64,000 bases of DNA. It comes from Eledone cirrhosa (taxonomy: Eukaryota). Made by a program: the position numbers and the translations under genes. Below the pieces are notes generated by a model. The model was not told where the DNA came from, ran no database searches, and was given only the letters and a program-made list of their open reading frames with translations. Positions 3,501 to 50,369 of this stretch are shown one piece after another; the stretch's first letter is position 1; each line of letters starts with the position of its first letter. The stretch spans positions 35,092,001 to 35,156,000 of the forward strand of contig OZ024743.1 in assembly GCA_964016885.1 (NCBI GenBank), written 5' to 3'.

Positions 3501-6429
3501 AAGTATTTTTTTAAAAATAAGAATGATGTTATCAGTAAATAAATGTATAGTTAGGTGAAGACAAAGAGATGAAACCAGAGTTGAAGAAATGAGAAAACTC
3601 TGAAAACAGAATTATATATGGCTCCAAGAATACTTGAATAGATAAAAGTAAACTGTTCCTAATTCAACTAATCAATATTTAATTACACCATAAAAGTGTA
3701 ATAGTGTTAACTTGCTGATTTTACCTAATGAAACACCTTTAGCCCTCAAATTCAGGAAAATTAGTACCTTTACAAGTGAAGCCAATGGTATGATTTGAGC
3801 AATGACAAGTCAATAAAACATTATAATTCACACTTGTAAATTATACTCCTCCTTTTACTCTTTTTACAATTAGGCAGAAAAGGACAGCCAGAATTAAGTG
3901 TATTGGACATATACTCAGTATCAGTGACAGGAAATAAACTATCAACCCAATAGCTGCAAAAGTCAACACTCTATCATCTATAGCAGCTGTGATTATCATT
4001 CAAGAATTATTGAGGTAATACAAGGGAGTACTTTAAATGTCTCATGTGTGATGCAAACATATAAAAATAAAAGAGGAGAAAAGGTTGACCTAATTTAACG
4101 TATATTTCAAACAATGTAATATCTCCTTAAAAGAAGTAAAAAGGTTTCTCTTTAAAAAAAAACCTTTCTTTGACGATCCATTGAGTTTACACTTCATAGG
4201 TTATGAAAAAAGTTTACTAATACTCATACATAATGAGTATATGCATGTGTATGGGTGAATGCATGTGTGTGTATAAAATCAGTTTTATGTCCATTTTCCA
4301 AAGGGCATGGGTTGAACAATTGAAAGCAAAATTCTAATGCCAGTAGAACATTCTTGGCACCAACCTTCACTCATTTTTTGAGCAGTGTATCTTTGCACAT
4401 GTAACTGGTGAACAACAGGACCTCTACTTAGGTAGATAATAAAACACAGAGACACATGTATATATACATATGTATATGACTGGGTTTGTACAGCTTTTGG
4501 CTACCAAACTTGCTCATATGGCATTAAGGTATTCATTGGCTTGGAGCTATAGTAGAAGACACTTGCCCAAGGTATCATAGAATGAGATAGAATCAATGAC
4601 CACATGGTTACACTGTGAACTTCTTACCTAGACAGCTATATACTGGCACACACGTGCGATTGGTAAATCTATGCACATGTATATTGAGAAATTTAGTAAA
4701 AGAGAGCTTAAAAACAGTGTACATATGAGTATGCATGTGTGAGTGAGTGTGTAAGAGTGAGTGACACGTGTGGTTTATTTATTATAAATCAAAGATAAGG
4801 GCTGATAAATATCCAAAGAAAACTTTCTAAAAAAAGACTTTTCACAGTCCAATAACCAAGAGGTAAACTATCTATATTTACATAGCAAACACCCCCTTTA
4901 AAACAACATAGCAATCTGTTTGCACTCTAGTCATGTACATGTATCATTCTCCACTACACACCAAAGCATAGGAAGTAAAAAGGGTCAGATATTATTTCAA
5001 AAGGGAAGGGAAAAAGTATGGTTTAAATGGAACTGATGGAACCATTTCAGTAGTTTACACCTGCCCCTAATGTTTGCACCTGATACTACTGGCCTATGCA
5101 ATATTAAACGATAGTAATAATAATAATTACGTTCAGTTTTTTCAGACCCCTTGTGGAGAATGAATGCTTTCAGCTTTGGTTACTTTCACAGTAATATAAG
5201 TTTCCCACCCCAATGTAAAAAAAAAGTAATAAATAAAATAAAAAGGGACTAGATGATTAACACCAGATTCAGAACAGTAAGTAATGACAAAAGACCAAGA
5301 TGATTAAATATACACCTTTTTCCATAAAAATATAGCATCAAAAACCTGCATGTGACTTATCTAATAGACCGACATTCAAATATATACATTACAAATTGAG
5401 TTATGACTTATTCACCATTGCTGGTGCGACTTATTTCATGCATAACAGACAAGTAAACTACAAACCAATGTAAAACATAGAAAAAAAAAAACTGTTAACC
5501 CTTTTGTGACTATATTTCAACTTAATAACAAAAGACAAATTATTTAACTACTGAAATCAAATATTTGGTATGTAATAATAAGATTTGAGTCTGAGGTTTA
5601 AATTTAAATCTGAACACTTTAATAGAGACGGTTTTGGGTATGTTGGTATTTAAAGTGTTAAATATTGATGGCAGTGATGATAAGTAAATTACTGACAGGA
5701 CTACAAAGATAATTAGCACGATGGTTATTTATGCTTATTACATTAATTTTCTTCACTGTTTTCATATTAGATGGTTGTACAAGTAGAGACATTTATCTGT
5801 TTTCAGAAACTGTTGGAACAAACTTGAATGCTTATGTGTGGTTGAGGCTAGATATACATGTAATAAATTAGAATCATACAAGATGTCTTTTCCAAGAAGA
5901 CACACAGTGTTATGCTTGCAACATGGCTTTAATTCTGATTCTAAGATATTTACAATATGATTTGGGTTAAAAGTTTTAGTTTCAAAAGTTAAAATTGGTC
6001 TCAATCCTAGAGCCTCATCAGGCTAGAGCCTATACTAGTTTCATGAGGTAGGTATTACATAACTGAGAGTACAAGACTCATCCACACCTCCCAGACAGGA
6101 CACTGGTCTGTTGAAAGGCTAACCATTAGCTGCTGCTGGCACTCATTTTTCTGAATAAGTGAACTAGAGCAATGCAAAATGAAGTGCCTTGTTCAAGGAC
6201 ACAATGTGTTACCAAGTCTGGGGATCAAACCTATAACCCTCATTGGGAGCCCAACACTCTAAATATATCAAATATTTAATAACACGTGTCATAAATTATA
6301 TCTTTTTACAGACCAAATTCTAGAAAAAGAAGTTATATGTATCAATGAAGCAATAGTTAAAATATAAAATTGAGTGATTCACCAAAGGGATAATATTTGA
6401 AGAAGAAAAGAGAACATAATCAACATAAA

Positions 6430-6720
6430 CCATGGAAAGCATGTGGCCTAGTGGTTAAAGTGTTGGACTAATGATCCTAAGATTGTGGATTCAATTATTG
6501 TCTGTGGGGAAACCCTGCGTGAGTGGAGACGCATGACGGGGGGTTCAGCAATCGTAGATCTAAAGTCGGCATACTTGCAATTGCATATAGATGAGAAGCT
6601 CTGGCAGTATCAGCTGGACACGACACTTCATTTTATGTTGTTCCAGTTGACTCAGCAAATAAAAATAAAAACTGAGTACTTGCAGCAGCAGCTGGAGGAT
6701 TAAACACTGCACAGACTGGT
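6430..6720 (+). mobile_element. Degenerate CORE-type SINE interrupted by an LTR-retrotransposon RT fragment
   Basis: A-box tggcctagtggttaaag, B-box-like ggattcaatt, then the CORE-like ttttatgttgttccagttgactcagc after a ~115-bp insert. Confidence 0.6.
6500..6616 (+). mobile_element. Gypsy-like reverse transcriptase fragment
   Basis: Translates VCGETLREWRRMTGGSAIVDLKSAYLQLHIDEKLWQYQL; DLKSAYLQL matches the RT motif DLxxAYxQ. Confidence 0.7.
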
Positions 6721-7327
6721 GTCCAGTCTTTTCATAAGAAAACACCTATGAGATGTAACCTACACAGGTGTGAGCTCTAACAAGAACAGCATTGATATTA
6801 GAATATACATGTAAAGAAAAAAATGTAAAGACAGAGGTGAAGAATTCTACTGATTGGATATTTTGCTATAGAAATGCTGAAAGTTCCAACAGAAGCCATT
6901 AATAGCAGTAGTAGTAGTAGAGTCAAAATATCAAGCAACCAAAATAGATGTAATTGCTTCTATCAGAATAAGTGCAATAAGGAATATCACCATATGTTCT
7001 TAGTGAACCATAAGACTTGCTAAACTTTATTTTATTTTTAACATATATCTATATATATAACAGACATATACAATTACCTTAATTATCTGCAGATTTAAAA
7101 CTGAAGAAAATCTTCTACCTACTTATTTTTAACTTTTGATTAACAAAAACACTTTAAACCAAATTACGCATCATCTAGATGTTGGTTATGAAAGGAATCA
7201 TGTAAAACTCTTCAGTAAAATTGAGTAAGCTCCTTGCTTAAACAACCAGGTAACTTTAAAAGAAAAAACTAGAAAAATAACATAATACCCAAATAAACCT
7301 TGAATTTTTTTCTTGTGGACATCTGAT

Positions 7328-7553
7328 TAACCTTTTGATACCAAGCCACATGAAACTGTCCCTCCTGGTTCTATTATATAAAGTTGTTTATTTTAAAATG
7401 TTCACAATTAAATATATATCTTCCAGTATGATTTTATGTAAGAACTTTTGTTAAGTTATGTTACAAAATCCCTCCTAATTTTTTTTATTATTTCCAAAAT
7501 TATTTGAAAATCATAAGCAATATCTCTTATTAGACATAAGGTAATGAAAGGGC
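7328..7553. mobile_element. piggyBac-like MITE family 1 (related copies ~2290-2494, ~5495-5660, ~12044-12325, 13944-14325, ~30719-30945)
   Basis: ttaa-cc(c)tttt..tacca left end and ggtaatgaaaggg right end; shared internal tttatgtaagaac..tgttaagttatg. Confidence 0.55.
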
Positions 7554-7567
7554 TCATGATTAAGTGT

Positions 7568-8391
7568 TCATCATCATTATCGTTTAACGTCCATCTTCCA
7601 CGCTTGCATGGGTTTGGACGAGAATTTTCCCGCTTGAGGCCAGATTGGTTGTCTTGCTCGCATGGGACTGTCTGGCGGGTTTTCTACGGCTGGATGCCCT
7701 TCCTAACACCAACCACGTTTACAGTGTGGACTGGGAGGTTTTTACCATGTTACCTACACGGCCACATTACAGCGTGGACTGTGTGTTTTTTTTTTGTCGT
7801 GACACCTACACGACCTCATTTATTTAGGACTGGATGTTGTGGTACCAACATAACTTTACATTGAAAGGGGTGGTGTGGATGGGGTGGGGGTATTTTTGTT
7901 AGAGGTGCCTACTGACTGTAGGTTTCGCTTTGTACTTAGGCAAGGCGGGTCTTCTGTATTACTGTGTAGCGCCAAAGATCTCGGTCCAGTGACATTGTCT
8001 TGGAGAGGTGTAAGTGTGTGAGGTCAGAATTTATCAAGTCGTCCCAGGTTTTTCTGGGTCTGCCTACTCCGTGGCTACCATCTATTTTTATCGCCCTGCA
8101 CTTTTTTATACAGCTGTCGTCTTTCATGCGCATCACGTGACCATACCAACGTAGCCTTCTCTCGAGTAAACAACATCTGATCCCTCTCATTCCTAATTTC
8201 TCCCTTAGTTCGTTTATGCTTTGCCGTTCACGTATATTACTATTACACATCCAGCGGAGCATGCAAGCTTCGTTTCTCTCCAGTCCGCGTATATCCTCTG
8301 TACACAATGCCTAGGTTTCACTGCCATGTAACATTGCTGTTCGTATGCAGGCATCATACAGCCTGCCTTTCATTTTTAGAGAGAACCCTTT
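7568..8391 (-). mobile_element. 5'-truncated RTE-clade LINE (ORF2 C-terminus, 3'UTR, (GAT)n tail)
   Basis: ORF 7936-8307 has RRLRWYGHVMRM...GRPRKTW; close paralogue of 59383-60617. Confidence 0.93.
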
Positions 8392-8410
8392 AGTTATTGC
8401 ATTATATTAT

Positions 8411-8601
8411 TTGGTGGATTGGCAGTATCGGTAGAGGGTCGGACGCTATGCTTTGATGCATAGAGTTACGACCCTTGCCATTCTGAGTTCAAATCCCACC
8501 GAGGTTAACTTTGCCTTTCATCCTTACTGGGTCGATAAAATAAAGTACCAGTAATGCACTGGATCATTGCTGGCCTTGTACCAAAAGTAGAAACAATTAT
8601 T
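8411..8601 (+). mobile_element. tRNA-derived SINE family B (Meta/MESC-like core, tentative)
   Basis: A-box tggcagtatcggtag, B-box gagttcaaatccc, core gcctttcatcctt..gggtcgataaaataaagtaccag, tail tggccttgtrccaaaagtagaaacaattatt. Confidence 0.8.
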
Positions 8602-11600
8602 TGTTTTTTTCTTAGGAAACCTGACAAAGACATAAAAGTTTTTTTTTATTTTACGACCTAGTCAGTGGAGGTAGGGGGCAAATCTGATTATATTATTGCA
8701 GGACCTCCTGGACTAAAAAAAAGGGGGAGGTAAACCACAAACTGGAGAATGTTTGCAACAGCATAGATTGTCAAAAGCACCCAAGAGTTAAGCAGTGGTA
8801 TTAAATTGGGTGAGATTAAGTCAGTCCTCTACAAAAATAACACTTCCAACACAAACAATCAAACTTGGTGCTACTTGAGTGAAAGCCAACAATCCTTAAA
8901 ACACAATGAATGCACAGTTTTAAAAGAGGAAAAAAATCTTTGCTGATGAAACCAACACAATTTCCAATCATTAAATAACACTCCTTGATTTGGTTTATTG
9001 TTTACATAAACAAGCAAAGGAATTAGAATAATCAGAAAACATCTTGCTTAATGCTCTAACACTTTTGCTAATCCACTGCTCCTGGACTGATCAGTACTTC
9101 AACTCCAAAAGGATGAAAAGCAATTGACTAGAACAGAATGTGAACTCAGAGAGTAGCGAGCTGAAACAAATACTGCAAAGCATTTAAACTGATGCTCTTT
9201 ATAAGTCTGCCAATCGTATACCTTTACCCACATGATGATTTTATTTACACAACAGCCAATTAACATATTCTTTAATCAACCTCAGGTATCTTGTTTTTAT
9301 ATATAAAATTCATTTCTTTGTCTCAACATTGAACCCACAAACCTTGATTGCAATCTCCCAAGGATTTGGCACTAATATTCACTTCAGTTACATCAAATAT
9401 AGGTTATCACAAAGAGAACATTTTTTCATTCACAAACTACAATTCCACAGAGAGGCTTCAAACTACCTTGATAGATAATGGTATGCCAAAATAAGGACAC
9501 CATTATTACATTTTATCATTTAGGTCAATAGACGTTTTCTTTAATATAAATCTTTGCTCAGGTTCCCAAACTTACTAGTGTCAAAAAAATAAAATAAAAT
9601 AATAAAAAATAACACCTCTGACAAAATATTAACTATCGGATAAATTTAAAGTTAAATGTTTTGATCAAGAATGTCATAAAATATTTACTGTGAAGTAGTA
9701 ACTGGTACAACAGAGGTTACAGAGGCAAATTTTATAAAGAAAAAGTCAATTAAATTCTTTTTACAATTATATTAACTTCTTTCATAGACACAAAGCTTCA
9801 AATTTAAGGGAAGGAACAGTACTTGACTGTTACTTATTTTATAAACCCTAGAAGGATGTAAAGCAAGGTTAATCTCAGTAAGAGCCATAAGTAAATAATG
9901 CCAAGCATTTCGTCTAATGATTCTGGCTATGTACATTATTAGTATCTATTTTATTGATTTAGAAACAATGAGAAGTGATGTTGGCAAAGCCAAAGTGATG
10001 TTTGAGTGCAGAACAATGATGTACTGAACTAGATATTCTAATGCATTCAGTGCTCTGGTTTCACAACTATCTCTAACATCCTCTAGCATCTTAAATATTC
10101 AGAGTGAAAAATAAAAATAAAAACATATGCCATCATGTCAGAGAGAAATATTTACTTGACAGAGCAATGTAGTAAAACTTAGACATATTGCTTCTGAAGC
10201 AACAAGAAAGTTTTCTAATAAAATCAACAGATAATTTTATCATGTGTGTCACATTAAAACTATAACAGTGAAGGAACCTAACTACTGCAATTTTAACAAT
10301 CTTAGTATATTGTTTATTGTTGTTTTTTTCTTACTGCAATACTTAAGAGTTAGTGCAAACTGTACAGCATTAAAATTGATGCTTTACTGTTCAAAGTTCA
10401 AATCTCACAATGATCAACACTACCTTTGATTCTTCTAGTGTCAAAATATGTAGCAGTATAATTCTAGGGTCAAATCAGTAATCTTAACAGAAAAAGGAAG
10501 ACGGGTTGTGGTGTAATTTGAGATACTCTTTAGGAGTATCAAAAAAAGAAGTGGGGTTGAAAAATTTAGTGCAGAATTTATCATAAATTTAAAAGCTCTA
10601 GTTGACATTGTCTTTCAGGGTCAACAAAATAAGTAGCTGTTATACTCTGTAGTTACAAAAAAACTAGTTGTGCTCAGTAAAAAAAAATTAATACAATGAG
10701 TCTACATCTTACATGGTCATTTGGTTCCCCAACCAACTCTGTTATTCAAAAACTGCATATGTTCATGATCGGGGTCGATATCAATGCTCCCCTACATAAG
10801 TGGTGCAATATCATATGAAACAGAACATTTTACAGCTTTACTTAAATTTTTTTTTATATTTTCCAACCAAGTATGTTCAAAACTACATAAGTTAAAATTG
10901 TGTAAGATGGAGGTCAACTGTATTGCATTTGTAAAGTTAAATATAGCAATTTAAGCAAAAGGTAAAGTTCTATATGAACTGGATATGCAAGCTGATTTAA
11001 ATCTCCAGTTGAAACCAACTCACTTCACTTGTATTGCTTATGCCATTGAGAAAAGTATGAATGCAACATAATCTCATTATTCCCCTCATCTATAAAACTT
11101 TCCAATATTATTGAGCTATAAAGGAGTTTTGTGATGGTAGTTTTAGGAGGACAGTATGTCATTAACTTGTTTGATACCTTGTTGCCTGAAACATCCATGG
11201 TTCTATGATACAAAGCTGTATATTCTAAAGTGTATATAATTATCTAAACACCTTCCACATAATTTAATCTAAGAAACTTTGCTAAGTTATGGCCCAAGCA
11301 TCAACTTAGTAATGAGAAAGTTAGTTTGATGAGATAGATAGCTATAATATTAAATCTCTCCAAATTCTTAATTTTTTAAATTTATTCAAATGCAGTGTCT
11401 TTCATTAGAAATAAAGTGACAAATGAGTTCAATGAATGGCCTTGGATGAGGGGCAGTGCAAGTAGCAGAATGCATGTAGGAATTAGTTAGAAATGGAACT
11501 GGGATATTGCCAGCAAATCTGCAGGAGCAGAACCTGTTGTAAGAAAGCAAGGTGAGTACACTGAGTTTTATTTATAAGTTAATGTAAGCTACTAATCCAT

Positions 11601-12898
11601 TATGTAATAAATAAATAAATCATACTTGTGTCCTAATTATAATAAATTAAAAAAGTTAACTTAATACAGTTAATCAGTATTTAGAAATTAGATAAATTGC
11701 AAATCCTATAAGTAATTAACGTAGCTCCTGCTGCTTTCTCTTTCTTTACCAAATATTATCAAATATTATCATTGCAAATAAAATAAAATTCTATAAGGTA
11801 TCATTGAACTTACATGAAATGAAAAGTTAATGTAAATTTTGATGGCCTCATATGAGGTTGCATCTCAGGGGAGGTTTCTTGAGTATCTTAATGATAACAG
11901 TGCCACTCCTATCTTGAAAAGTAATATCAAATGAAACATCTTTCTCAAAAACACAATGGAATGCTTAGTCCAGGAATTGAAATTATGATCCCTTAACCAT
12001 TAGGCCATGCATCTAGCTTTCAATTAATTTCCTTGTGCTCCTTTTAACTCTTTTCATTACCATATGAAAATCATAGAAAGACTTCTATGATTTTCAAATC
12101 CTGAAAATAATCAAGAATTTCAGATGGATTTAGTAATATGACTTGAAAAACATTGCTTCAAAAAGGACTCCATAATGAGCATTAAGCTTTCCATGGGGCC
12201 TGCAATGCCAGTTCCTGTTTTAGCAGTGGAAAATGACTATAAAATGTTTGCTTGCATAAACACCTGAAAACAATTTTGTATCATAGAATCAGGTTGTTTC
12301 AGATGATTTGGTATCAAAAAGGTTTATGATAGAATTTTATTCTAAGACACAAGGCCTATTACTTAAATTTTTTTCGTCAACTCTAGGTGTAAAAGGAAGA
12401 ATTGACTAGTGATATGAATGAGAGAAAAATTAGTGTTTAAACTAATACTAAAATCTCCTTAAAATATTCTGGAGAAGCTCCATTACTTTATTATATTATA
12501 ATTGTGTGTGTGTAAAGACAATAGACCATAAAAACTAGTGTGTTTTAACCCTTGCCGACATGAAATACTAATGTAAAATAAGTTTTGATGAGAATAGTTG
12601 TGAAAAAAAAATGAAAATTATTTTTAGGAATAAAACAATGTAGAAAACAAATACCAACTACCTGAATAAAAAAAAAAAAAGAGAGAGAAAAAAATAAAAA
12701 AATAAAAATGATACATTATCCACTCATAAGGAAATGAGATCTTAAGCTTTAAAAAGAATTAATTGATATCTTTTATAAAACCAGTTTAAATTACTAGGCA
12801 GAAATTGATCAATTACTGAACTAAGCATTCCACAAAAGGTAAATTGCATATAACACACCAGTCTTTAAAGTTGAGGTTGAAAATAATAACAATAATAA

Positions 12899-13385
12899 TA
12901 ATTGTTTCTACTTTTGGCACAAGGCCAGCAATTATCCCAGTGTATTACTGGGATAATTGTTGGCCTTGTGCCAAAAAGTAGAAACATAATAATAATAATT
13001 GTTTCCACTTTTGGCACAAGGCCAGTAATTTCAAGGGAAAGTTGATTATATCGACCCCAGTGTTTTACTGGTACTTTATTTCATTAAACCCGTAAGGATG
13101 AAAAGCAAAGCTAACTGCAGCGAGATTTGAACTTAGGACATAACAGGCCATAACGATATACTGCAAAGCATGTTGTCCGATGCTCTGCTGATACTGCGAA
13201 TCTACAGGCAATAATAATAATAATGGTTTCTGATTTAGGCACAAAGCCAACAATTTTGGGGAAGGGGAAAGTCGAAAGCTAACCTTGGCGGGATTTGAAT
13301 TCAGACTGTAAAGGGACGTAACTATATGCCACAAAGCATGTTTCTGACGTTCTACTGATATTGCAAACCCACAGGCAATAATAAT
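12899..13385 (-). mobile_element. Cluster of SINE family B copies with an inverted tail palindrome
   Basis: Repeated gtttc.acttttggcacaaggccag tails separated by (aat)n; B-box reverse complement gatttgaact. Confidence 0.8.
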
Positions 13386-16300
13386 AATGTCTTTTTAAAA
13401 CATCATTACCTTGCCCTAAATTCTTTTTAAATGCTTACTTTAATGATTAGTCACCAATTTTAACAGTATAAAAAAATATTCAAATAATTTGGGCTCAAAT
13501 CATCATCATCATTTTACATCCGTTTTCCATGCTGGTCAGATTGCTTGAGGGCCATGCCAAGCTCATACAATCCATTTTAGCAAAGTTTCTACAACTGGAT
13601 ACTCTTTCTAATGCCAACCACTTTACAGAGTGTATTGGCTGCATTTTATCATGGCTTCTGCACTACCACTTACAGTGTACTAGATTCATTTTGTCATGAC
13701 ACCAACACTACTGGAGTATAATAAAATTGCTATTCTTTGGCAAGTTATTTTTATTGAAACAGTTTATAAGTTTTATATTAGAATTGTTAATCATTTAACA
13801 AGGCTAATGCCAAATTTCTCATTTCATATTAGGGATGTGTTTTAACCATCATTATAAGTCCCATTATTTTGGGTACAGACTTACTAACCAAACAATTGAT
13901 GATTCATATATACTGTTACCAACATGTGATATATCTGTATCTCTTAACCCTTTTCATACCAATTTGCTTAAAACCCTCCTTCGCTCTACAATACTAAACT
14001 GTTTTAAAGTGTTTATACTTATCTAAAAACTTCCATCATAAATTTATGTAAGAACCTTTATTAAGTTATGTTCTAAACACCAACTTAATAATGAGAAAGT
14101 TGGTTATATTACTAAATCCCTCCAAATTCTTAATTATTTTTTAAATTATTTGAAAATAATAGACAACAGATAATTTTCATTAGCAATATGGTAATGAACA
14201 GGACTGGAGCTTCTATCATCCAAGTAACCTCCTATGAGATGTAACTAAATCACTCCAAATTCTTGATTATTTTCAAAATTATTTGAAAATCATAGGCATA
14301 AGAAATATGGCAACAAAATGGTTAAATGACTGCAATTGGTAAGTTCAGTGGCTAAAATGCTTAAATAATATGAAACATAAGCTACCCAAACAGCTATTGA
14401 AATACCACTATTTTCATAATAAACTAACAAGCAACAACAGCTGTTCATAATCAACTGATGACAATATATTTCAAATTAAGCAAATTTTATTGTAACAATT
14501 AATAACAAAGCAAACTGATAAATGCAAAGCCTTTGCTTTATGAAAACTAGACCACATTCTAAAACTATATAAAAAAAATTCAATATTTAGTTATTAATAA
14601 ACACTAAAAATTGGCCCTATGACTACATTCGATATCAATATTTTAATTAAACCGTAGCTGTTAATTTCACCTAGGTTTTCTACTATTGTTTTAAAACAAC
14701 AATGAAATCGTGTTTTAAATTCCCGAAATTACATGAAAAGTAAATTTTTTATAGAATTTATTAAGCATCTAACATTTTGGAAAGATAGTATATGTCATTG
14801 AGTGAGTAGTTTAGGACTAAATATTGTACAGGTAATAAGTTAAAAAGAAAGTATAGAAAGTCGTCTTTGACTCTCATTAGCATATAACATTTAATATTTA
14901 AGAGCAAAATAGAATACCAGTTGAGTAGTGGGGTTCATATGATTGACTGATATTAGTATCATTTCAGCTATCCTGAATGAATCTTCTTAGTGCTGCTTAC
15001 AATTCAAGGGCAGATGAAAGAGTAAATCCCTAACAGTCAGAGCATTCCCGTACTTTCTTTTGGGCTTTTTATTACATGTACAGTATCTATTTGTGCCCTC
15101 TTATTAAATGAACTGTCTGTTGTGTAAAGATCACATTTCCTCTATTTTGGACATAGTTTTACAACTGGATACCTTTACCTAGCATTAATTTCCCTCAAGT
15201 GAGTTACATATACAGTGTCTTTGCATCTGCATGGGTGCTCTCATTGGCAGAGTATAAAGTTGTCACTGCAACTCAAACCCTGGAATCTTATAAAAGAAAG
15301 ACACGTCAAATGTGGTCTTGGGTGTAATATGCTTGAGAAAAAACAATGATCACAGCTGGAATGCCCTTTTATTTTTGAAGTAAGTGATATCTATTTTGGT
15401 CCAGAAATAGAGGGATCATTACCCAGGAGGGCAGATAGAATTTTCAAACTTTTTAAAAATATTAATACAATAAAAATAAAACCCTTCCTGTTTACTACAA
15501 AATATACAGTTCTGATGTTTACTATTTAGAGTAAATTTCCCTAATGGTAAAATAACTCTAAGAAGATTATACTTGGGAATTATACATCCAATCAGATTCA
15601 TACTATGGCAGCTACATAACTAAATAACATATTATACTGTTTAGTAATTTTGCCTCGGTAGTTATTCCTCTCTTTCTCTTAGTTGTATCAGACAAGGCTA
15701 CACGTAAATTTTTATCAGTTTTGCAGGTCATGAATTCACTAATCATCACAATTATGTTATATATTGGAGTCAATAGTAGTTGGAGGATGCAAAGTTAGTA
15801 AAGCTTTAACATTTGGAAATGACACAGAAATAAAAAAGAAGGGCATACACTACATCTGTAAATAGATAGACAAATAGATGAAGATTAAAATTTCTAATCT
15901 TAATCTAAGGAGGGCTGGAACTTAAGTTTGGAAAGCATGTAGGCATCAATAACATTGGCAGATGTATGTAGGAGCAACGACTATACATCTGGTACATACC
16001 GTTAGTAAAATGCTGGAAGGTATATGTCATTGAGTTATAAGTCAAATAAGAATTGATATCATCAACTGATCTGAAATTACTGGACCTTAGCTATAAATTT
16101 GTAAATGCCTCCTTAAACCATGGGAGACTTTTAAAGACCAGCGTTTAGCTCCAGTTCTGTGAAGCAGATGAGGGCTTAATCTTGCTCATGAAAGGTCACC
16201 AATACACAACAGCTAGCATTCCATATGATTCATACTTATTCTCAAGAGCAATATAAACTAAGACAATGTAAAATATAGTGTTTTACCTCTAAACATATTT

Positions 16301-16648
16301 AAATGCTTGCAGTGAATTTGATCTCATGACCTCACTTTTACTACAGATGATATAGCATAGAACTGTAGATACACTTGTTTCGTGTCAGCATATAATGATG
16401 ATGATGAGGAGGATGAAGTAAAAAGCAAAAGAATAAAAGCAAAAGAATATAAGTAAATAAAACATGGTTTGGGGGAGAATTTCAGTACAACCATGTTGTG
16501 TAGGTAATTGGGGCAGTTTAAAATACAAGCTGCATTAGAATAAAAATGATATTCAAAATAACAGAAGTGAGAAAATTTGGGTGTTACCTTTTCTAGTCAT
16601 AACAAATGAATCACAGTAATATATAAGTTGCGTTATCTCACGGAAGTG

Positions 16649-16649
<1 letters not shown>

Positions 16650-16708
<59 letters not shown>
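16650..16708. repeat. (TG)n microsatellite
   Basis: Seen directly. Confidence 0.98.
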
Positions 16709-16710
<2 letters not shown>

Positions 16711-17200
16711 GGGTGCAACAGAAGGGACAACCCTTGCTGAAGATAGGATATTGAAAGATTTAAACATAATTATATTCATTATCATCTACATTTTCTGCTC
16801 CTCTGAACTACAACCAACATCTGTTCCTTTAAATCAGTCAACTTTATCCAGCTCCTAACTTTTCTCTACATAAACTGAGTTTTAAATAAATTTATCCACC
16901 TCTTCTCCATGACTATCAGATTCACTATTTATCTATGTCCACCAGTCTTAAGAGGGTTAAAGTAAGCTACAGATACTAACTTTCCTTCTCAAACTATTTA
17001 TGAAACAAAAAAAACATATTCCTCTTTGCATAAAAAAAAAGAATTGATAAAAAGGGCATGTTCCTTTTAGATGTCACCGATATTTTGTACCAGTAATTTC
17101 TATCCAATTAATCCTACCTTTTCATATCACATAATCACCTTAATCTTGTCGCTATAAACTTAGTTAAAATTATTTCATTTTTCATATCAACAGTCAGAAA

Positions 17201-46032: not shown

Positions 46033-46076
<44 letters not shown>

Positions 46077-46693
46077 TATCGTTTAACGGTTTTCTTCCAT
46101 GCTAGCATGGGTTTAGACGGGAGTTGTCCTACTTGAAGCAAGAATGGTCGGGTCACCATGTCTCGCTCGTATAGGACTGTCTGGCAGGTTTTCTACGGCT
46201 GGATGCCCTTCCTAATACCAACCACGTTTACAGTGTGGACTGGGAGGTTTTTACCGTGTTACTTACACGGCCAGATTACAGCGTGGGCTGTGTGTTTTTT
46301 TTGTCGTGACACCTACATGACCTCATTTATTTTGGACTGGATGTTGTGGTACCAACATAACTTTACAGAGAAAGGGTGGTGTTGGTGGGGGTGGGGGTGG
46401 AGTAAGGGTAGTGGGATGGGGTATATATTTGGTTAAGAGGTGCCTACTGACTGTAGGTTTCGCTTTGTACATAGGCAAGGCAGGTCTTCTGTATTACTGC
46501 GTAGCGCCAAAGCTCTCGGTCCAGTGACATTGTCTTAGAGAGGTGTAAGTCTTTCATGCGCATCACGTGACCATACCAACGTAGTCTTCTCTCGAGTAAA
46601 CAGCATCTGATCCCTCTTATTCCTAATTTCTCACTTAGTTCATTTATGCTCTGCCATTCGCGTATATTACTACTACACATCCACCAGAGCATG
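46033..46693 (-). mobile_element. 5'-truncated RTE LINE with an internal ~105-bp deletion
   Basis: Paralogue of 7568-8391; RMKD is joined directly to LHLSK. Confidence 0.9.
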
Positions 46694-46732
46694 GAGCCAT
46701 ATGATCGATATATATTATATATCAATCTCGTT

Positions 46733-46770
<38 letters not shown>

Positions 46771-46773
<3 letters not shown>

Positions 46774-47798
46774 AGATAGAAAAATGCGTACAGCAAAAAA
46801 AAGTAATATTGTTGGAATATAAACCTTTAAAAATACAGGACAAGAAACTAAAATAAAACTTTAAAAGAATAGGACAAGAAACTAAGATAAAACTTTAAAG
46901 AATTGGACAAGAAATAAAAAATTTTACAATAATATTAGTGGCAAAATTTTTATTGGTAAAAAATCGAGTTCCACATTCATAGGCTCTGGGTTCCATATTC
47001 AGAGGTCGTCGTCAGACCGGGGGGATCATTTGATCCTGGTTTGAACACCAATTGGGCCATAACCATACCCCTATTTCATCATTCGGCGACACGCCTCATG
47101 TGTCATGCATAATGTGAATGGACCCATGGGCCCATGAGCACAGATCTTGAGCAGCAGCGGACGGTCTTGTCGTCCTGCTCATCCTTGATCTTGACCAACC
47201 CGTCCATCTTCTCCTTGCATCTTGTCCTTGAGTTCAAGTCCGGCAGTCCAGATGAATGCATGCCACAGCTTTCTGGTACAGGAAGGGGGAGCAGGAGGAC
47301 TGGAGGGATGACGGGACAGAGGGAGGGAGGACCGGTAGTCGGTGTCAGAGTCGACATCTTCTCCATCTTCGTCTGGTGTTGCGGGACCAGAAGTGCATTC
47401 TTGGAGGAGACCTGCAGCTGCATCGGCCAATTCTTCTTGCAATGGTCATTCTGATAGAGCAGAACTGCTCAGCCAACCAACCCCAACCAGAACCAACCGC
47501 TCAGGGGCAACGCACAATGAGAGCATGACAATTATTATGCACTAATCAAGAAGATACTGGGGCATAGCACAGGAAACGAATAAAAAAATTTTGCCACTAA
47601 TATTATTGTAAAATTTTTTATTTCTTGTCCAATTATTTAAAGTTTTATCTTAGTTTCTTGTCCTATTCTTTTAAAGTTTTATCTTAGTTTCTTGTCCTAT
47701 TCTTTTAAAGTTTTATTTTAGTTTCTTGTCCTGTATTTTTAAAGGTTTATATTCCAACAATATTACTTTTTTTTGCTGTACGCATTTTTCTATCTGGT
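46771..47798. repeat. Long inverted repeats (46771-46954 and 47579-47798) with 34-bp internal subrepeats
   Basis: accagatagaaaaatgcgtacagc... versus ...gctgtacgcatttttctatctggt; the motif ggacaagaaa occurs 3 times on the left and 4 times (reverse complement) on the right. Confidence 0.95.
46955..47526 (-). pseudogene. Decayed GC-rich ORF of unknown function between the inverted repeats
   Basis: One frame runs MLSLCVAPE...QEELADAAAG...DEDGEDVDSD...IWNPEPMNVELDF with four TGA and one TAG stop, consistent with C-to-T decay of CGA/CAG codons. Confidence 0.45.
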
Positions 47799-48071
47799 CT
47801 ACTATTTTTTAAGGCAATGCAAGCAACAACTATCTAATAATTAAATGATCATAGTGAATTACTGACAAGTGATTGACATTTTAAAGTTCTTTTGAGTATA
47901 ATTGCAATCTAATTGAGGCAACTGGCTTAATAACAAAGCTAGTAAATCATGAATGCATTTGAGATGATTAGTGCATAATAGTGAATTGGTGAAACTTGTG
48001 CATTTCAATGGTGTTACAACAATAGATGTAAGTTATATAGTAGTAATACTTTATCATTTTAACTTTTTAGA

Positions 48072-48431
48072 ATGGACAAAAACCCATGCAAAGAAATGAC
48101 TTTGACTGCAGTGATTCTCTCCAATTTACTTACAAAGCAAAATGTGGTCAAATACCTTATCATCTCTGATAAAATGCCCATTGAATCACTGAAAATCGGA
48201 TGCATGGAATTCCTCATAAAATGCACCTATGAATCGGAAGCCATCACATATATCAATGGATATAGGGAATTGTTCACACTGGAATACCATCACTTCATTT
48301 GTGACTTCATCAGTTATCTCCACGATTATCTCAGACACCCAATGCCATTGATGAGAGGTGATCCAATGTGTGAGCATGTAACTAATCTTATAGAAGTTGT
48401 TATCGACCACCTGGCTTTTAGTGACATTTGA
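48072..48431 (+). CDS. Orphan 119-aa protein within the unknown element
   Basis: ATG-to-stop ORF of normal complexity; upstream gtaagt...ttttag 43-nt intron-like segment (48028-48070); downstream aataaa near 48517. Confidence 0.45.
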   Translation: MDKNPCKEMTLTAVILSNLLTKQNVVKYLIISDKMPIESLKIGCMEFLIKCTYESEAITYINGYRELFTLEYHHFICDFISYLHDYLRHPMPLMRGDPMCEHVTNLIEVVIDHLAFSDI

Positions 48432-48611
48432 CTGATTTGACTGATAATGATGTATTTTTAAAAAGTATGTGTACATTCTTGTTACTATTTTAAGGCAATG
48501 CAAGCAACAACTATTTAATAAAATTTAAATTTAAAAATGACCATTGTGCATTACTAGTATGATGACATTTTATTAAGTCACAAAATTAGTCAGTCAGCCA
48601 TAGAACAAGGA

Positions 48612-48836
48612 TCAGGTGGCAAAAACATTGGCAAAAATTTGTGTCAATTTAAGATTTCCAACATTGTTCAAATGAATCATATCTGGTTTGAAGTCAGATT
48701 TGTCAAATTTCGACCAATTTTCAATGTTGGGAAGATTGGGCAAGTTCAATTTTTGAATCATTTCTTTCATGCAGTAATTAAACTTTTCCAAACGTCGTCA
48801 TTTCTGGATTACCTCCCCTAGCGTCACGCTTACTAC
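48612..48836 (-). pseudogene. SGNH/GDSL esterase-like C-terminal remnant
   Basis: VVSVTLGEVIQK*RRLEKFNYCMKEMIQ...DFKPDMIHLNNVGNLKLTQIF; DxxHLNxxGxxKL matches SGNH block V. Confidence 0.65.
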
Positions 48837-49141
48837 TCACTCACTTGAACACAAGATTTATCAGCAAACTTTGATTATAAACTTTTTCCCGCTGGACCAA
48901 ATTTCTAGATTTTTAAGCCAAAAGATGCGTAATGATCTACTGTTCATGCTCATATAAGTTTTATCTCAGTTAAATAAAGTAGAGCCTCGCTGTACTGTCG
49001 TAAACAGACGATTGCCAACGAAAACACAACCACAACAATATTACTAAACGGACTACCGTCCGTTTAGGATATATATATATATATATATTTCATCATCATC
49101 GTTTAACATCTATCTTCCACGCTAGCATGTGTATATATATA

Positions 49142-49816: not shown

Positions 49817-50242
49817 ATGTAGGAGGTGAGTTTTATTGTAGCACAATAAAGCAATGCAAATATCGGATAAGTAGCACTCTACAGTTTGTAGGACTGGAGT
49901 ATAAATAATATAAGATCAAAAGATGGTTAAAAGAGTTCCAAGTATTTTATTATGCGCATTTCAAAAACAAATATCATCATGGGATGATATCTGCGTTCTC
50001 ATCAGATAAAATAGGGATACATGATATGAAGCTTAAAAAGCACTTGTGAATAGTGAAGTTTTAAATCAACATATATGTTGATTTAAAACTTCACTATTCA
50101 CAAGTGCTTTTTAAGCTTCATATCATGTATCCCTATTTTATCTGATGAGAACGCAGATATCATCCCATGATGATATTTGTTTTTGAAATGCGCATAATAA
50201 AATACTTGGAACTCTTTTAACCATCTTTTGATCTTATATTAT
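49817..50242 (-). mobile_element. PLE-like remnant: 338-bp perfect palindrome (49905-50242) plus ~88-bp tail
   Basis: 169-bp arms with no spacer, centre 50073|50074; a hammerhead in each arm; (TA)n flanks. Confidence 0.85.
50134..50204 (+). ncRNA. Type-I hammerhead ribozyme (mirror copy 49943-50013 on the minus strand)
   Basis: Stem I tattttat/ataaaata; CTGATGA 50142-50148; 16-bp stem II; GAAA 50185-50188; palindromic stem III ATGCGCAT; UH site T50195-A50196. Confidence 0.85.
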
Positions 50243-50369
50243 ATATATATGTGTGTGTGTGTGTATATATATATATATGTATGTAAAAGGTAAACAGAAA
50301 TAATAACACAATCAGTACAGTATATGGAATGAATATATTAGGTTAATGCTTGAAATAGCAGGAAGAGGG

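Follow-up and report, generated by a model that had tools for sequence, protein, structure and literature searches.

A 2.3-kb repeat unit of Eledone cirrhosa as a probable non-autonomous Helitron-like element with a replicase-helicase-bearing parent

What kind of unit is a 2.3-kb piece of DNA that lies between two runs of (TA)n, holds long inverted repeats, an orphan open reading frame (ORF), an esterase-like remnant and a hairpin, and shows no transposase? We address this question for a locus of Eledone cirrhosa contained in a stretch of 64,000 nucleotides (assembly GCA_964016885.1, contig OZ024743.1, positions 35,092,001 to 35,156,000 of the forward strand), called the window below, whose numbering we use throughout. 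An original prediction, made from the letters alone, had described the locus as an unclassified multi-ORF element. All features that it listed are present: (TA)n flanks, inverted repeats with 34-bp units, a direct repeat, a 119-aa ORF, an SGNH-like piece and a hairpin. Our analysis indicates that positions 46772-49069 (2,298 bp), which read 5'-TC...CTGG-3' on the minus strand, are probably a complete non-autonomous copy of a Helitron-like element (HLE), equivalent to a form of about 12.6 kb with a replicase-helicase (RepHel) from which about 10.3 kb has been lost, and likely mobilised in trans by the replicase-helicase of its family.

The repeat unit, its ends and its target site

The whole 3.0-Gb genome was searched with each of three modules of the unit, which gave 645, 540 and 813 first-look candidates, 40 of them scored for each module. 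Scored matches were full-length; their identity was 88-97% in the inverted-repeat module and 98-99% in the two others. All modules were collinear, at 93-99% identity, in 33 of 33 loci besides the window, so that the genome-wide comparison proposed with the original prediction found them together and not as independent repeats. Copies of the inverted-repeat part ran on into the sequence from 47802 onward in 31 of 31 cases (11 from the first loci and 20 from further flanks); a solitary inverted-repeat module was seen in none of these 31, and no duplication flanks the module. Median identity of the copies to the window was 98.4-99.4% outside the inverted repeat and 93% in its GC-rich spacer.

The copy alignments all stop at the same two end bases. 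Counting distinct loci, window included, the left junction is host A followed by CC in 22 of 22 and the right junction is AGGA followed by host T in 31 of 33. Read on the minus strand, the element runs 5'-TCCTAAACGG...CTATCTGG-3' and is placed between host A and host T. In the window these host bases are A46771 and T49070, which moves the unit one base to the right of the span first given for it, 46771-49068. (TA)4 or a longer run lies within 12 nt of 7 of the 22 left and 11 of the 33 right junctions; a T precedes the host A in no more than 14 of the 22. Since (TA)n recurs at junctions, we take the microsatellites on the two sides of the window copy, 46735-46771 (Tandem Repeats Finder, (TA)18.5) and 49070-49088 (the same program reports (TA)10 at 49069-49088), to be the halves of one split target. 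The succession of (TA)n, inverted repeat, extension and (TA)n, which had been likened to small remnants of Penelope-like elements (PLEs), is on this evidence a single microsatellite interrupted by an insertion between A and T.

Two paralogous empty sites bear on the mode of insertion. The insertion at L005/L006 has an uninterrupted counterpart in L008, where positions 2994 and 2995 adjoin in '...ATGTAA' followed by 'TATTCATT...'; that at L028 has two, in L081 (5270 and 5271) and L075 (1916 and 1917), reading '...catatatata' followed by 'tgtacgtatgg...'. At both sites host A and T are adjacent, zero bases are duplicated or lost, and the insertion sits in an older repeat. Overall, these junctions show that the element inserts between A and T without target-site duplication, often inside (TA)n. 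The window copy has both termini of the family and is a whole non-autonomous unit that inserted on its own, not a broken fragment.

We also observed that a long-type copy (L004, C1:14.57 Mb) and a window-type copy (L028/L086, C6:43.53 Mb) occupy the same A-T position of the same host repeat. The coincidence would be explained either by an insertion hotspot or by the spread of a repeat that already bore a copy.

The RepHel-bearing parent and its deletion derivatives

A genome search with DUF6570 returned 54 matches, several of them 5-9 kb to the 5' side of family copies. The RepHel-bearing elements found there have the same 5' block and the same 3' part as the window copy, placed around about 9 kb of coding sequence, and they match it exactly in the termini and in the A and T that flank them. 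The parent form of about 12.6 kb is exemplified by C28b (12,628 bp, 4301-16928), with C2a, C12a, C28a, C3a and C2x as partly truncated versions. Aligned on its sense strand, the window copy is this parent minus about 10.3 kb: element positions 1-250 correspond to C28b 4301-4550 and positions 276-1438 to C28b 14909-16045. The earlier statement that no transposase is visible holds for the window copy but fails for the family, whose longer copies carry RepHel.

Along one strand of the parent the order is DUF6570-Rep-PIF1-UvrD_C-UCH, then a spliced SGNH-like gene, an antisense 119-aa frame (ORF119) and the 3' inverted repeat. We scanned eight sense-strand ORFs against Pfam (three of C12a, two of C2a and three of C13x, a copy of a sister subfamily) and obtained DUF7486, DUF6570 (E 1e-12 to 5e-18), Helitron_like_N, REP_ORF2-G2P, PIF1, UvrD_C_2 and UCH; one of the C2a ORFs, of 323 aa, had zero Pfam matches. 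The sister copy C13x reads 1,904 and 507 aa in one frame with a single stop between them and contains the same domains. A search with the Rep region located 23 places at 89% amino acid identity or higher, the largest open frames being 1,904 (the sister subfamily, at 89%), 1,174, 964 and 938 aa.

Candidate Helitron_like_N matches in the genome number at least 3,704. Another family with DUF6570, also of HLE2 type, was observed at L137-L142 (G000 C3:72.98 Mb, C5:5.37 Mb, C14:27.66 Mb). Its ORFs of 2,230-2,245 aa are uninterrupted, and its copies are 98-99% identical to each other. This second family was considered as an autonomous partner and set aside: no termini in common with the window family were found (its own termini were not located), and nucleotide identity is about 65%.

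The unit occurs in several deletion classes. The 274-nt 5' terminal block (48796-49069, minus strand) is common to all structural variants and to the RepHel-bearing parent, with a median identity of 98.5% over 33 copies. Directly inside it, at 48794-48796, lies the deletion junction of the window copy, where the RepHel-UCH region and the 5' part of the SGNH gene are gone. A 3.56-kb variant (7 loci) has 1.26 kb extra between 48794 and 48796 and equals the parent minus about 9.0 kb; a 1.44-kb variant is without 47942-48795; and a further variant, in 11 of 20 flank-sampled loci, has 477 nt of different sequence after 48017. One breakpoint, element nt 274/275 (48796-48798), is common to three deletion classes, which join 48794 to 48796, 47941 to 48796, and 48210 to 48798 with an AAAT filler. 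The last class is known from one contig of run X4, and the 3.56-kb form reads straight through the breakpoint. A hotspot, nested derivation or template switching could each underlie this shared position. Two independent copies, at L022 and L035, terminate at 47601-47612, inside the inner arm of the inverted repeat, and have unrelated flanks.

In Logan contigs of run X1, pieces of the element have a word depth of about 1,450-2,700 versus 7.3 for the unique right flank; as a rough indication, this depth gives a copy number of a few hundred, and the family probably makes up on the order of a megabase of the 3-Gb genome. Runs X5 and X6, labelled as two other organisms, also contain the family, about 98-99% identical, and with it the short-type joint of 47941 to 48796. 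Either the family is common to close relatives or it has moved between them.

Terminal signals and the place of the family between HLE1 and HLE2

The ends of the unit carry three candidate cis signals. The first is a 5'-terminal stem-loop (49044-49067, minus strand) with a 10-bp stem and a 4-nt loop, 2 nt from the TC end; the terminal 100 nt fold at -15.4 kcal/mol (z -3.98), and 0 of 200 shuffles were as stable. The second is an asymmetric terminal inverted repeat of 13 nt (minus-strand sequence AGTAATATTGTTG), whose left copy (49033-49045, element nt 25-37) abuts the hairpin and whose right copy (46802-46814), 31-43 nt before the 3' end, is its exact inverted match. The third is the long inverted repeat. 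Its outer arm (46772-46951, the repeat itself running from 46768/46772; minus strand) is the 3' terminus of the element, consists of 3.0 units of 34 bp, encloses the right 13-nt copy and closes with the CTGG end; its inner arm (47584-47797, the repeat itself reaching 47801; minus strand) is an inverted copy of that terminus with 3.9 such units. The last 180 nt of the element are in this way repeated, inverted, 0.6 kb upstream; in two sub-alignments the arms match each other at 99% over 132 nt and at 95% over 136 nt.

The sister subfamily C13x, at 77-88% nucleotide identity, retains all three. It keeps TC, has both 13-mers unchanged and ends in CTAG followed by host T; the pairing of its hairpin is preserved through one compensatory change of G-C to C-G; and its inner inverted arm is altered along with its terminus, so that an inverted copy of the 3' end is retained. 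This conservation is our main evidence, and an indirect one, that hairpin, 13-mers and inverted 3' copy may matter to the element.

In Helitrons the HUH nuclease of RepHel nicks the 5' end, the helicase unwinds the DNA, and the strand is closed at its 3' end and pasted into the target. Because these steps are established for Helitrons generally, we propose a similar course here. RepHel would nick at the 5' TC adjoining the terminal hairpin and the 13-nt repeat; the strand would be peeled off up to CTGG and then pasted between A and T; and the hairpin, the 13-nt repeat and the 180-218-bp inverted 3' copy would serve as cis recognition or termination signals. The window copy would be mobilised in trans by the RepHel of its own family or of a close relative.

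To which group of Helitron-like elements does the family belong? Canonical Helitrons are defined by TC...CTRR ends and an A-T target without duplication (PMC4067079, PMC11417382). In the HELIANO scheme as described in PMC11417382, TC/CTRR ends with an A-T target denote HLE1, and short inverted repeats with a T-T target denote HLE2; DUF6570 is proposed there as an HLE2 marker, and DUF6570 together with UCH is given as 'almost exclusively' HLE2. An 'F/Y-x-R' triplet in Rep is described as a Helentron signature (PMC4067079). Measured against these schemes, the family combines traits of both groups. Its ends are those of HLE1, namely 5' TC and 3' CTRR (CTGG in the window family, CTAG in the sister subfamily), as is its A-T target, while its RepHel lacks the HLE1-type characters, which are absence of DUF6570 and an L between G and P in motif 2. 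From HLE2 it has a DUF6570-bearing RepHel and short (12-16 nt) terminal or sub-terminal inverted repeats in the form of the exact 13-nt pair. The HLE2 target, T-T, is replaced by A-T, and the stem-loop stands at the 5' end of the RepHel sense strand, the arrangement called 'HLE2-reverse'. The AP-endonuclease of Helentrons is not represented, no Exo_endo_phos match appearing in the eight scanned ORFs; UCH follows the helicase instead.

The Rep proteins point in the same direction as the domains. The parent Rep motif, FWRLEYQQRGAPHIH, contains RGAPH with FWR upstream, whereas an HLE1 control family from this genome, which contains STPRs and ends in CTAG, has WMFSIEWQKRGLPHAH, with RGLPH, and is without DUF6570. 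Amino acid identity of the parent Rep is 61% to the second DUF6570 family (L137-L142) versus about 25% to HLE1 Reps. Judged by these protein markers, the family likely belongs to the HLE2 (Helitron2/Helentron) clade, with HLE1-like ends and target. The combination of an HLE2-like RepHel with a Helitron-like 3' CTAG and A-T insertion is that of the proto-Helentron, with 5' TC here versus TT in Phytophthora. In its fullest form, our reading is of a recently amplified lineage of proto-Helentron type, in which an HLE2-clade replicase (DUF6570, UCH, FWR) would act on HLE1-style TC...CTRR ends and an A-T target, with 'reverse' signals, a long inverted 3' copy and a spliced SGNH gene of its own. On this fuller reading our judgement is evenly divided.

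The alternative that survives best accepts the same family but turns it around: it would be an HLE2/HINE-type element of canonical layout on the plus strand of the window, with RepHel antisense and TC...CTGG a coincidence. The plus-strand order does fit the HLE2 scheme as set out in PMC11417382 and PMC4067079, with a sub-terminal repeat (46802-46814), its inverted copy (49033-49045) and a stem-loop (49044-49067) 2 nt from the end, and antisense RepHel is on record for some Helentrons (PMC4067079, PMC5148889). However, the target is A-T and not T-T, TC and CTRR stand on the RepHel sense strand in both subfamilies (as CTGG and CTAG), and the 5' repeat of such an element would lie 30 nt from its end and not 2-4 nt. 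We consider this polarity unlikely, though it deserves more weight than any other alternative.

An ordinary HLE1 Helitron derivative, in which the DUF6570/UCH region of the long copies is a nested or captured HLE2 fragment, is much harder to sustain. Ends and target are textbook HLE1, and HLE1 families with CTAG ends and (TA)n targets abound in this genome. Yet at least six RepHel-bearing copies at different places have the same junctions with the terminal blocks, which are 95-97% identical; the diverged sister subfamily has the same layout; and 36 loci sampled around Helitron_like_N matches (HLE1-type) have neither sequence nor termini in common with the family. We rate this explanation as very improbable.

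Two further proposals are already contradicted by the evidence, and we give hardly any credence to either. A chance composite of unrelated repeats (a foldback miniature inverted-repeat transposable element (MITE), an esterase piece from ORF1 of a long interspersed nuclear element (LINE) and another repeat) would account for the foldback-like look of the inverted-repeat module and could draw on the SGNH domains known in ORF1s of CR1-type LINEs (PMC4021074), but it is at odds with the joined modules of all sampled loci and with the fact that 150 of 150 scored genome matches to the SGNH-like piece are copies of this one family; a cut-and-paste foldback or MITE-type element was likewise rejected, its module never occurring alone, no duplication being present and the outer ends of the unit not being inverted repeats of each other. 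The other proposal, a fragment of a giant cargo element or endogenous virus (an Athena/Terminon-type PLE or a Polinton), was suggested by the SGNH remnant and by the absence of any transposase from the 2.3 kb. It was right in so far as a larger parent with cargo, UCH and an SGNH-like gene, exists, but that parent is 12.6 kb long, its eight scanned ORFs hold RepHel-UCH domains and no reverse transcriptase, GIY-YIG, pPolB or integrase, and the unit, having both family termini and inserting by itself, is not a fragment, nor is it a virus, PLE, LINE, DIRS element or Polinton. For PLEs (Athena/Terminon) and LINEs, reverse transcriptase and GIY-YIG are missing from the window ORFs also, and both ends are sharply defined; for Polinton/Maverick, termini and empty sites contradict AG...CT inverted ends and a 6-bp duplication, the '...ggtctact' once compared with a Polinton terminus lying at the inner arm and being no terminus at all.

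Several observations weigh against the identification of the window copy as a Helitron-like element of this polarity and clade. HLE1 Helitrons have a palindrome of 16-20 nt that stands some 10-12 nt before their 3' end, and no 16-20-nt hairpin lies near the CTGG end, where the last 100 nt fold at -2.7 kcal/mol (z -0.33) with just a 3-bp stem. The sequence of the 13-nt repeat is AT-rich, and a match of length 13 also arose in 2 of 200 shuffles. In the parent Rep the G-x-P residue is A, neither the S of Helentrons nor the L of Helitrons, and it is domains and motifs, not a tree with reference sequences, that place the family in HLE2. All 21 RepHel places at 91% identity or higher are broken, with no frame above 1,174 aa, so an active source in the assembly is not demonstrated. 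Empty-site support is limited to two independent insertions; neither a transposition event nor a circle junction nor a polymorphic empty allele was observed, and the contigs of X1, X4, X5 and X6 do not span the insertion site. The strand that is actually transferred cannot be read from sequence.

With the family taken as a Helitron-like element read 5'-TC...CTGG-3', comparison with known systems shows where it is familiar and where it is unusual. It resembles canonical HLE1 Helitrons and their derivatives in 5' TC, 3' CTRR, A-T insertion without duplication and a RepHel parent, as well as in its many deletion derivatives with just the ends in common and in its carried gene pieces. It differs from them in having a 5' hairpin, a 13-nt repeat and a 180-218-bp inverted 3' copy instead of a 3' hairpin, and in a parent with DUF6570, UCH and an FWR signature, which are reported for HLE2 and not HLE1.

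Closer in layout are the 'HLE2-reverse' elements FoHeli3, FoHeli4 and FoHeli5 of Fusarium oxysporum, which, as portrayed in the relevant passages of PMC5148889 and PMC11417382, carry a hairpin at the 5' end, directly upstream of the left short repeat, but none at the 3' end, near which the right repeat lies, and have a RepHel of DUF6570 type. By the same accounts they start with TGCCT, end with CTCCTGT and have no established target preference, whereas the window family has TC...CTRR and an A-T target in a 3-Gb genome and, additionally, a long inverted repeat, UCH and an SGNH-like gene. The order of 5' stem-loop, left repeat and right repeat without a 3' hairpin is given in PMC11417382 for HLE2-reverse and, with a longer spacer, for the proto-Helentron, which its authors saw solely in Phytophthora among the genomes that they examined. 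The described element, proto-Helentron-Pi of Phytophthora infestans (PMC4067079, PMC11417382), agrees with the window family in several respects: its RepHel is HLE2-like and has no endonuclease domain, its 3' end is a Helitron-like CTAG, it inserts between A and T without duplication, a stem-loop stands at its true 5' end, and it has extra genes. According to these sources its first bases are TT, RepHel lies between its short inverted repeats, and SET and TIR domains are present; the window family in contrast starts with TC, has both long arms 3' of RepHel and carries UCH and an SGNH-like gene as cargo.

The HINE/DINE-1 elements, as treated in PMC4067079, are gene-less and high in copy number like the derivatives of our family, and they too combine sub-terminal inverted repeats with a terminal stem-loop, contain internal tandem repeats and are associated with microsatellites; they differ in a TT target, in 12-15-bp repeats that lie 2-4 nt from the 5' end and in partners with an endonuclease domain. 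The texim genes of bony fish, SGNH-hydrolase genes on Helitrons (PMC4021074), are comparable by description only: there too a predicted SGNH esterase gene travels with a Helitron, but here the family has HLE2 markers and only the last 59 codons are left in the window copy. On Helitrons with long inverted repeats or foldback ends, nothing relevant in the literature was found among the matches listed.

For the locus itself, these results replace an 'unclassified multi-ORF element' with a defined transposon family that has exact ends, a known parent and several deletion classes. The proto-Helentron is the one exception that current schemes describe. If correct, the pairing of HLE2 protein markers with HLE1 ends in a young, high-copy family would widen this exception beyond Phytophthora, and end type and target choice would not be clade-locked in Helitron-like elements. 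Hundreds of copies that are 98-99% identical would then offer a natural system for mapping the cis signals and Rep residues behind nicking and target choice.

Internal sequences, cargo remnants and neighbouring repeats

Between the arms of the inverted repeat lies a spacer of 632 bp (46952-47583) with 52-56% GC versus 20-25% in the arms. The 'decayed ORF' once noted there is not borne out: the spacer has zero Pfam matches, no homology was found for its ORFs, and the sister subfamily C13x has an unrelated spacer in its place. Beyond the inner arm, an imperfect direct repeat, located by repeat comparison, has its first copy at 47800-47883 and its second, of about 90 nt, at 48483-48572 (both plus strand); the two are 76% identical over 95 columns, with a 34-nt core at 97%.

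The SGNH/GDSL-like piece of the window copy (48612-48791, minus strand) comprises the last 59 codons of exon 3 of a gene found in the parent copies, where the region downstream of UCH can be read on the sense strand as three exons, with GT-AG introns of 55 and 57 nt between them whose lengths agree with the observed frame offsets. In order, the exons supply IVGDS (block I), PGARQG (block II), VGSND (block III) and DMIH (block V). Exon 3 alone matches Lipase_GDSL_3 in Pfam with E 0.008 and 16.9 bits, below the 27-bit cut-off, and the Atlas leads are GDSL clusters; the protein-database search (longer lengths allowed) found no relatives, and the PDB sequence search gave matches at chance level only. 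The deletion of about 9 kb in the 3.56-kb form cuts the gene inside block I, and the window copy keeps block V only. Diverged matches at 80-85% identity, considered as a donor gene, proved to be older copies of the same family, and no donor was found. An SGNH-type gene thus likely belongs to the element, judging from its motifs and exon structure, and the piece in the window is likely its remnant, as the original prediction had held. An SGNH-like gene that seems to be the element's own echoes the unexplained association of texim with Helitrons in fish.

ORF119 (48072-48431, plus strand) is convergent with this piece and antisense to the sense strand of the element. It has no Pfam match and no sequence relatives in protein-database searches at near and longer lengths; its Atlas leads are BTB/BACK-like and weak (0.90-0.92), and AlphaFold2 run without an alignment gives a low-confidence, all-helical model (mean pLDDT 49.8). 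The frame is intact in 29 of 36 copies. Its 74 distinct variants fall on the three codon positions as 26, 21 and 27, and 21 are synonymous, 49 non-synonymous and 4 stops. An apparent codon-position bias (59/22/91) was discarded: it came from three differences private to the window that had been counted once per copy, and it vanishes with distinct variants. Given this even spread, ORF119 appears to be open because the copies are young and not because it is selected, the variants giving no sign of selection. We predict that ORF119 and the SGNH remnant are passive leftovers in the window copy, and in such copies neither should be annotated as a gene. Against Rfam, nothing in the whole window reached the gathering score, with sub-threshold matches on (TA)n and (TG)n only.

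Some neighbouring and related sequences were observed along the way. Directly to the left of the element, 46063-46700 is a very abundant short repeat that begins TCATCATTATCGTTTAAC..., another copy of which starts at 49087-49135. Its word depth in run X1 is about 0.35-1.8 million versus 7.3 for unique sequence, copies lie near several other loci, and it is probably a family similar to short interspersed nuclear elements. Further to the right, 49900-50247 is a perfect palindrome with two 174-nt arms, 99% complementary and without a spacer, and a sequence related to it flanks the family copy at L038/L040.

The genome also harbours a young autonomous Helitron family of HLE1 type, about 6.7 kb long and 97-99% identical between copies (L070 and L071, L080 and L081, L084 and L085, L074 and L075; G000 C2, C4 and C1). 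It has an ORF of up to 1,718 aa, STPRs, Helitron_like_N, a canonical 3' hairpin and an end reading ...CGCTAG followed by T, and it too lies in (TA)n. Finally, the top-ranking matches to Helitron_like_N, with an open frame of 362 aa, are repeated along a single strand every 70-210 kb, very roughly, at G000 C20:3.5-5.2 Mb, C27:13.0-15.5 Mb, C19:35.4-39.9 Mb and C16:0.5-0.8 Mb, which suggests large tandem or segmental repeats bearing a Helitron Rep fragment.

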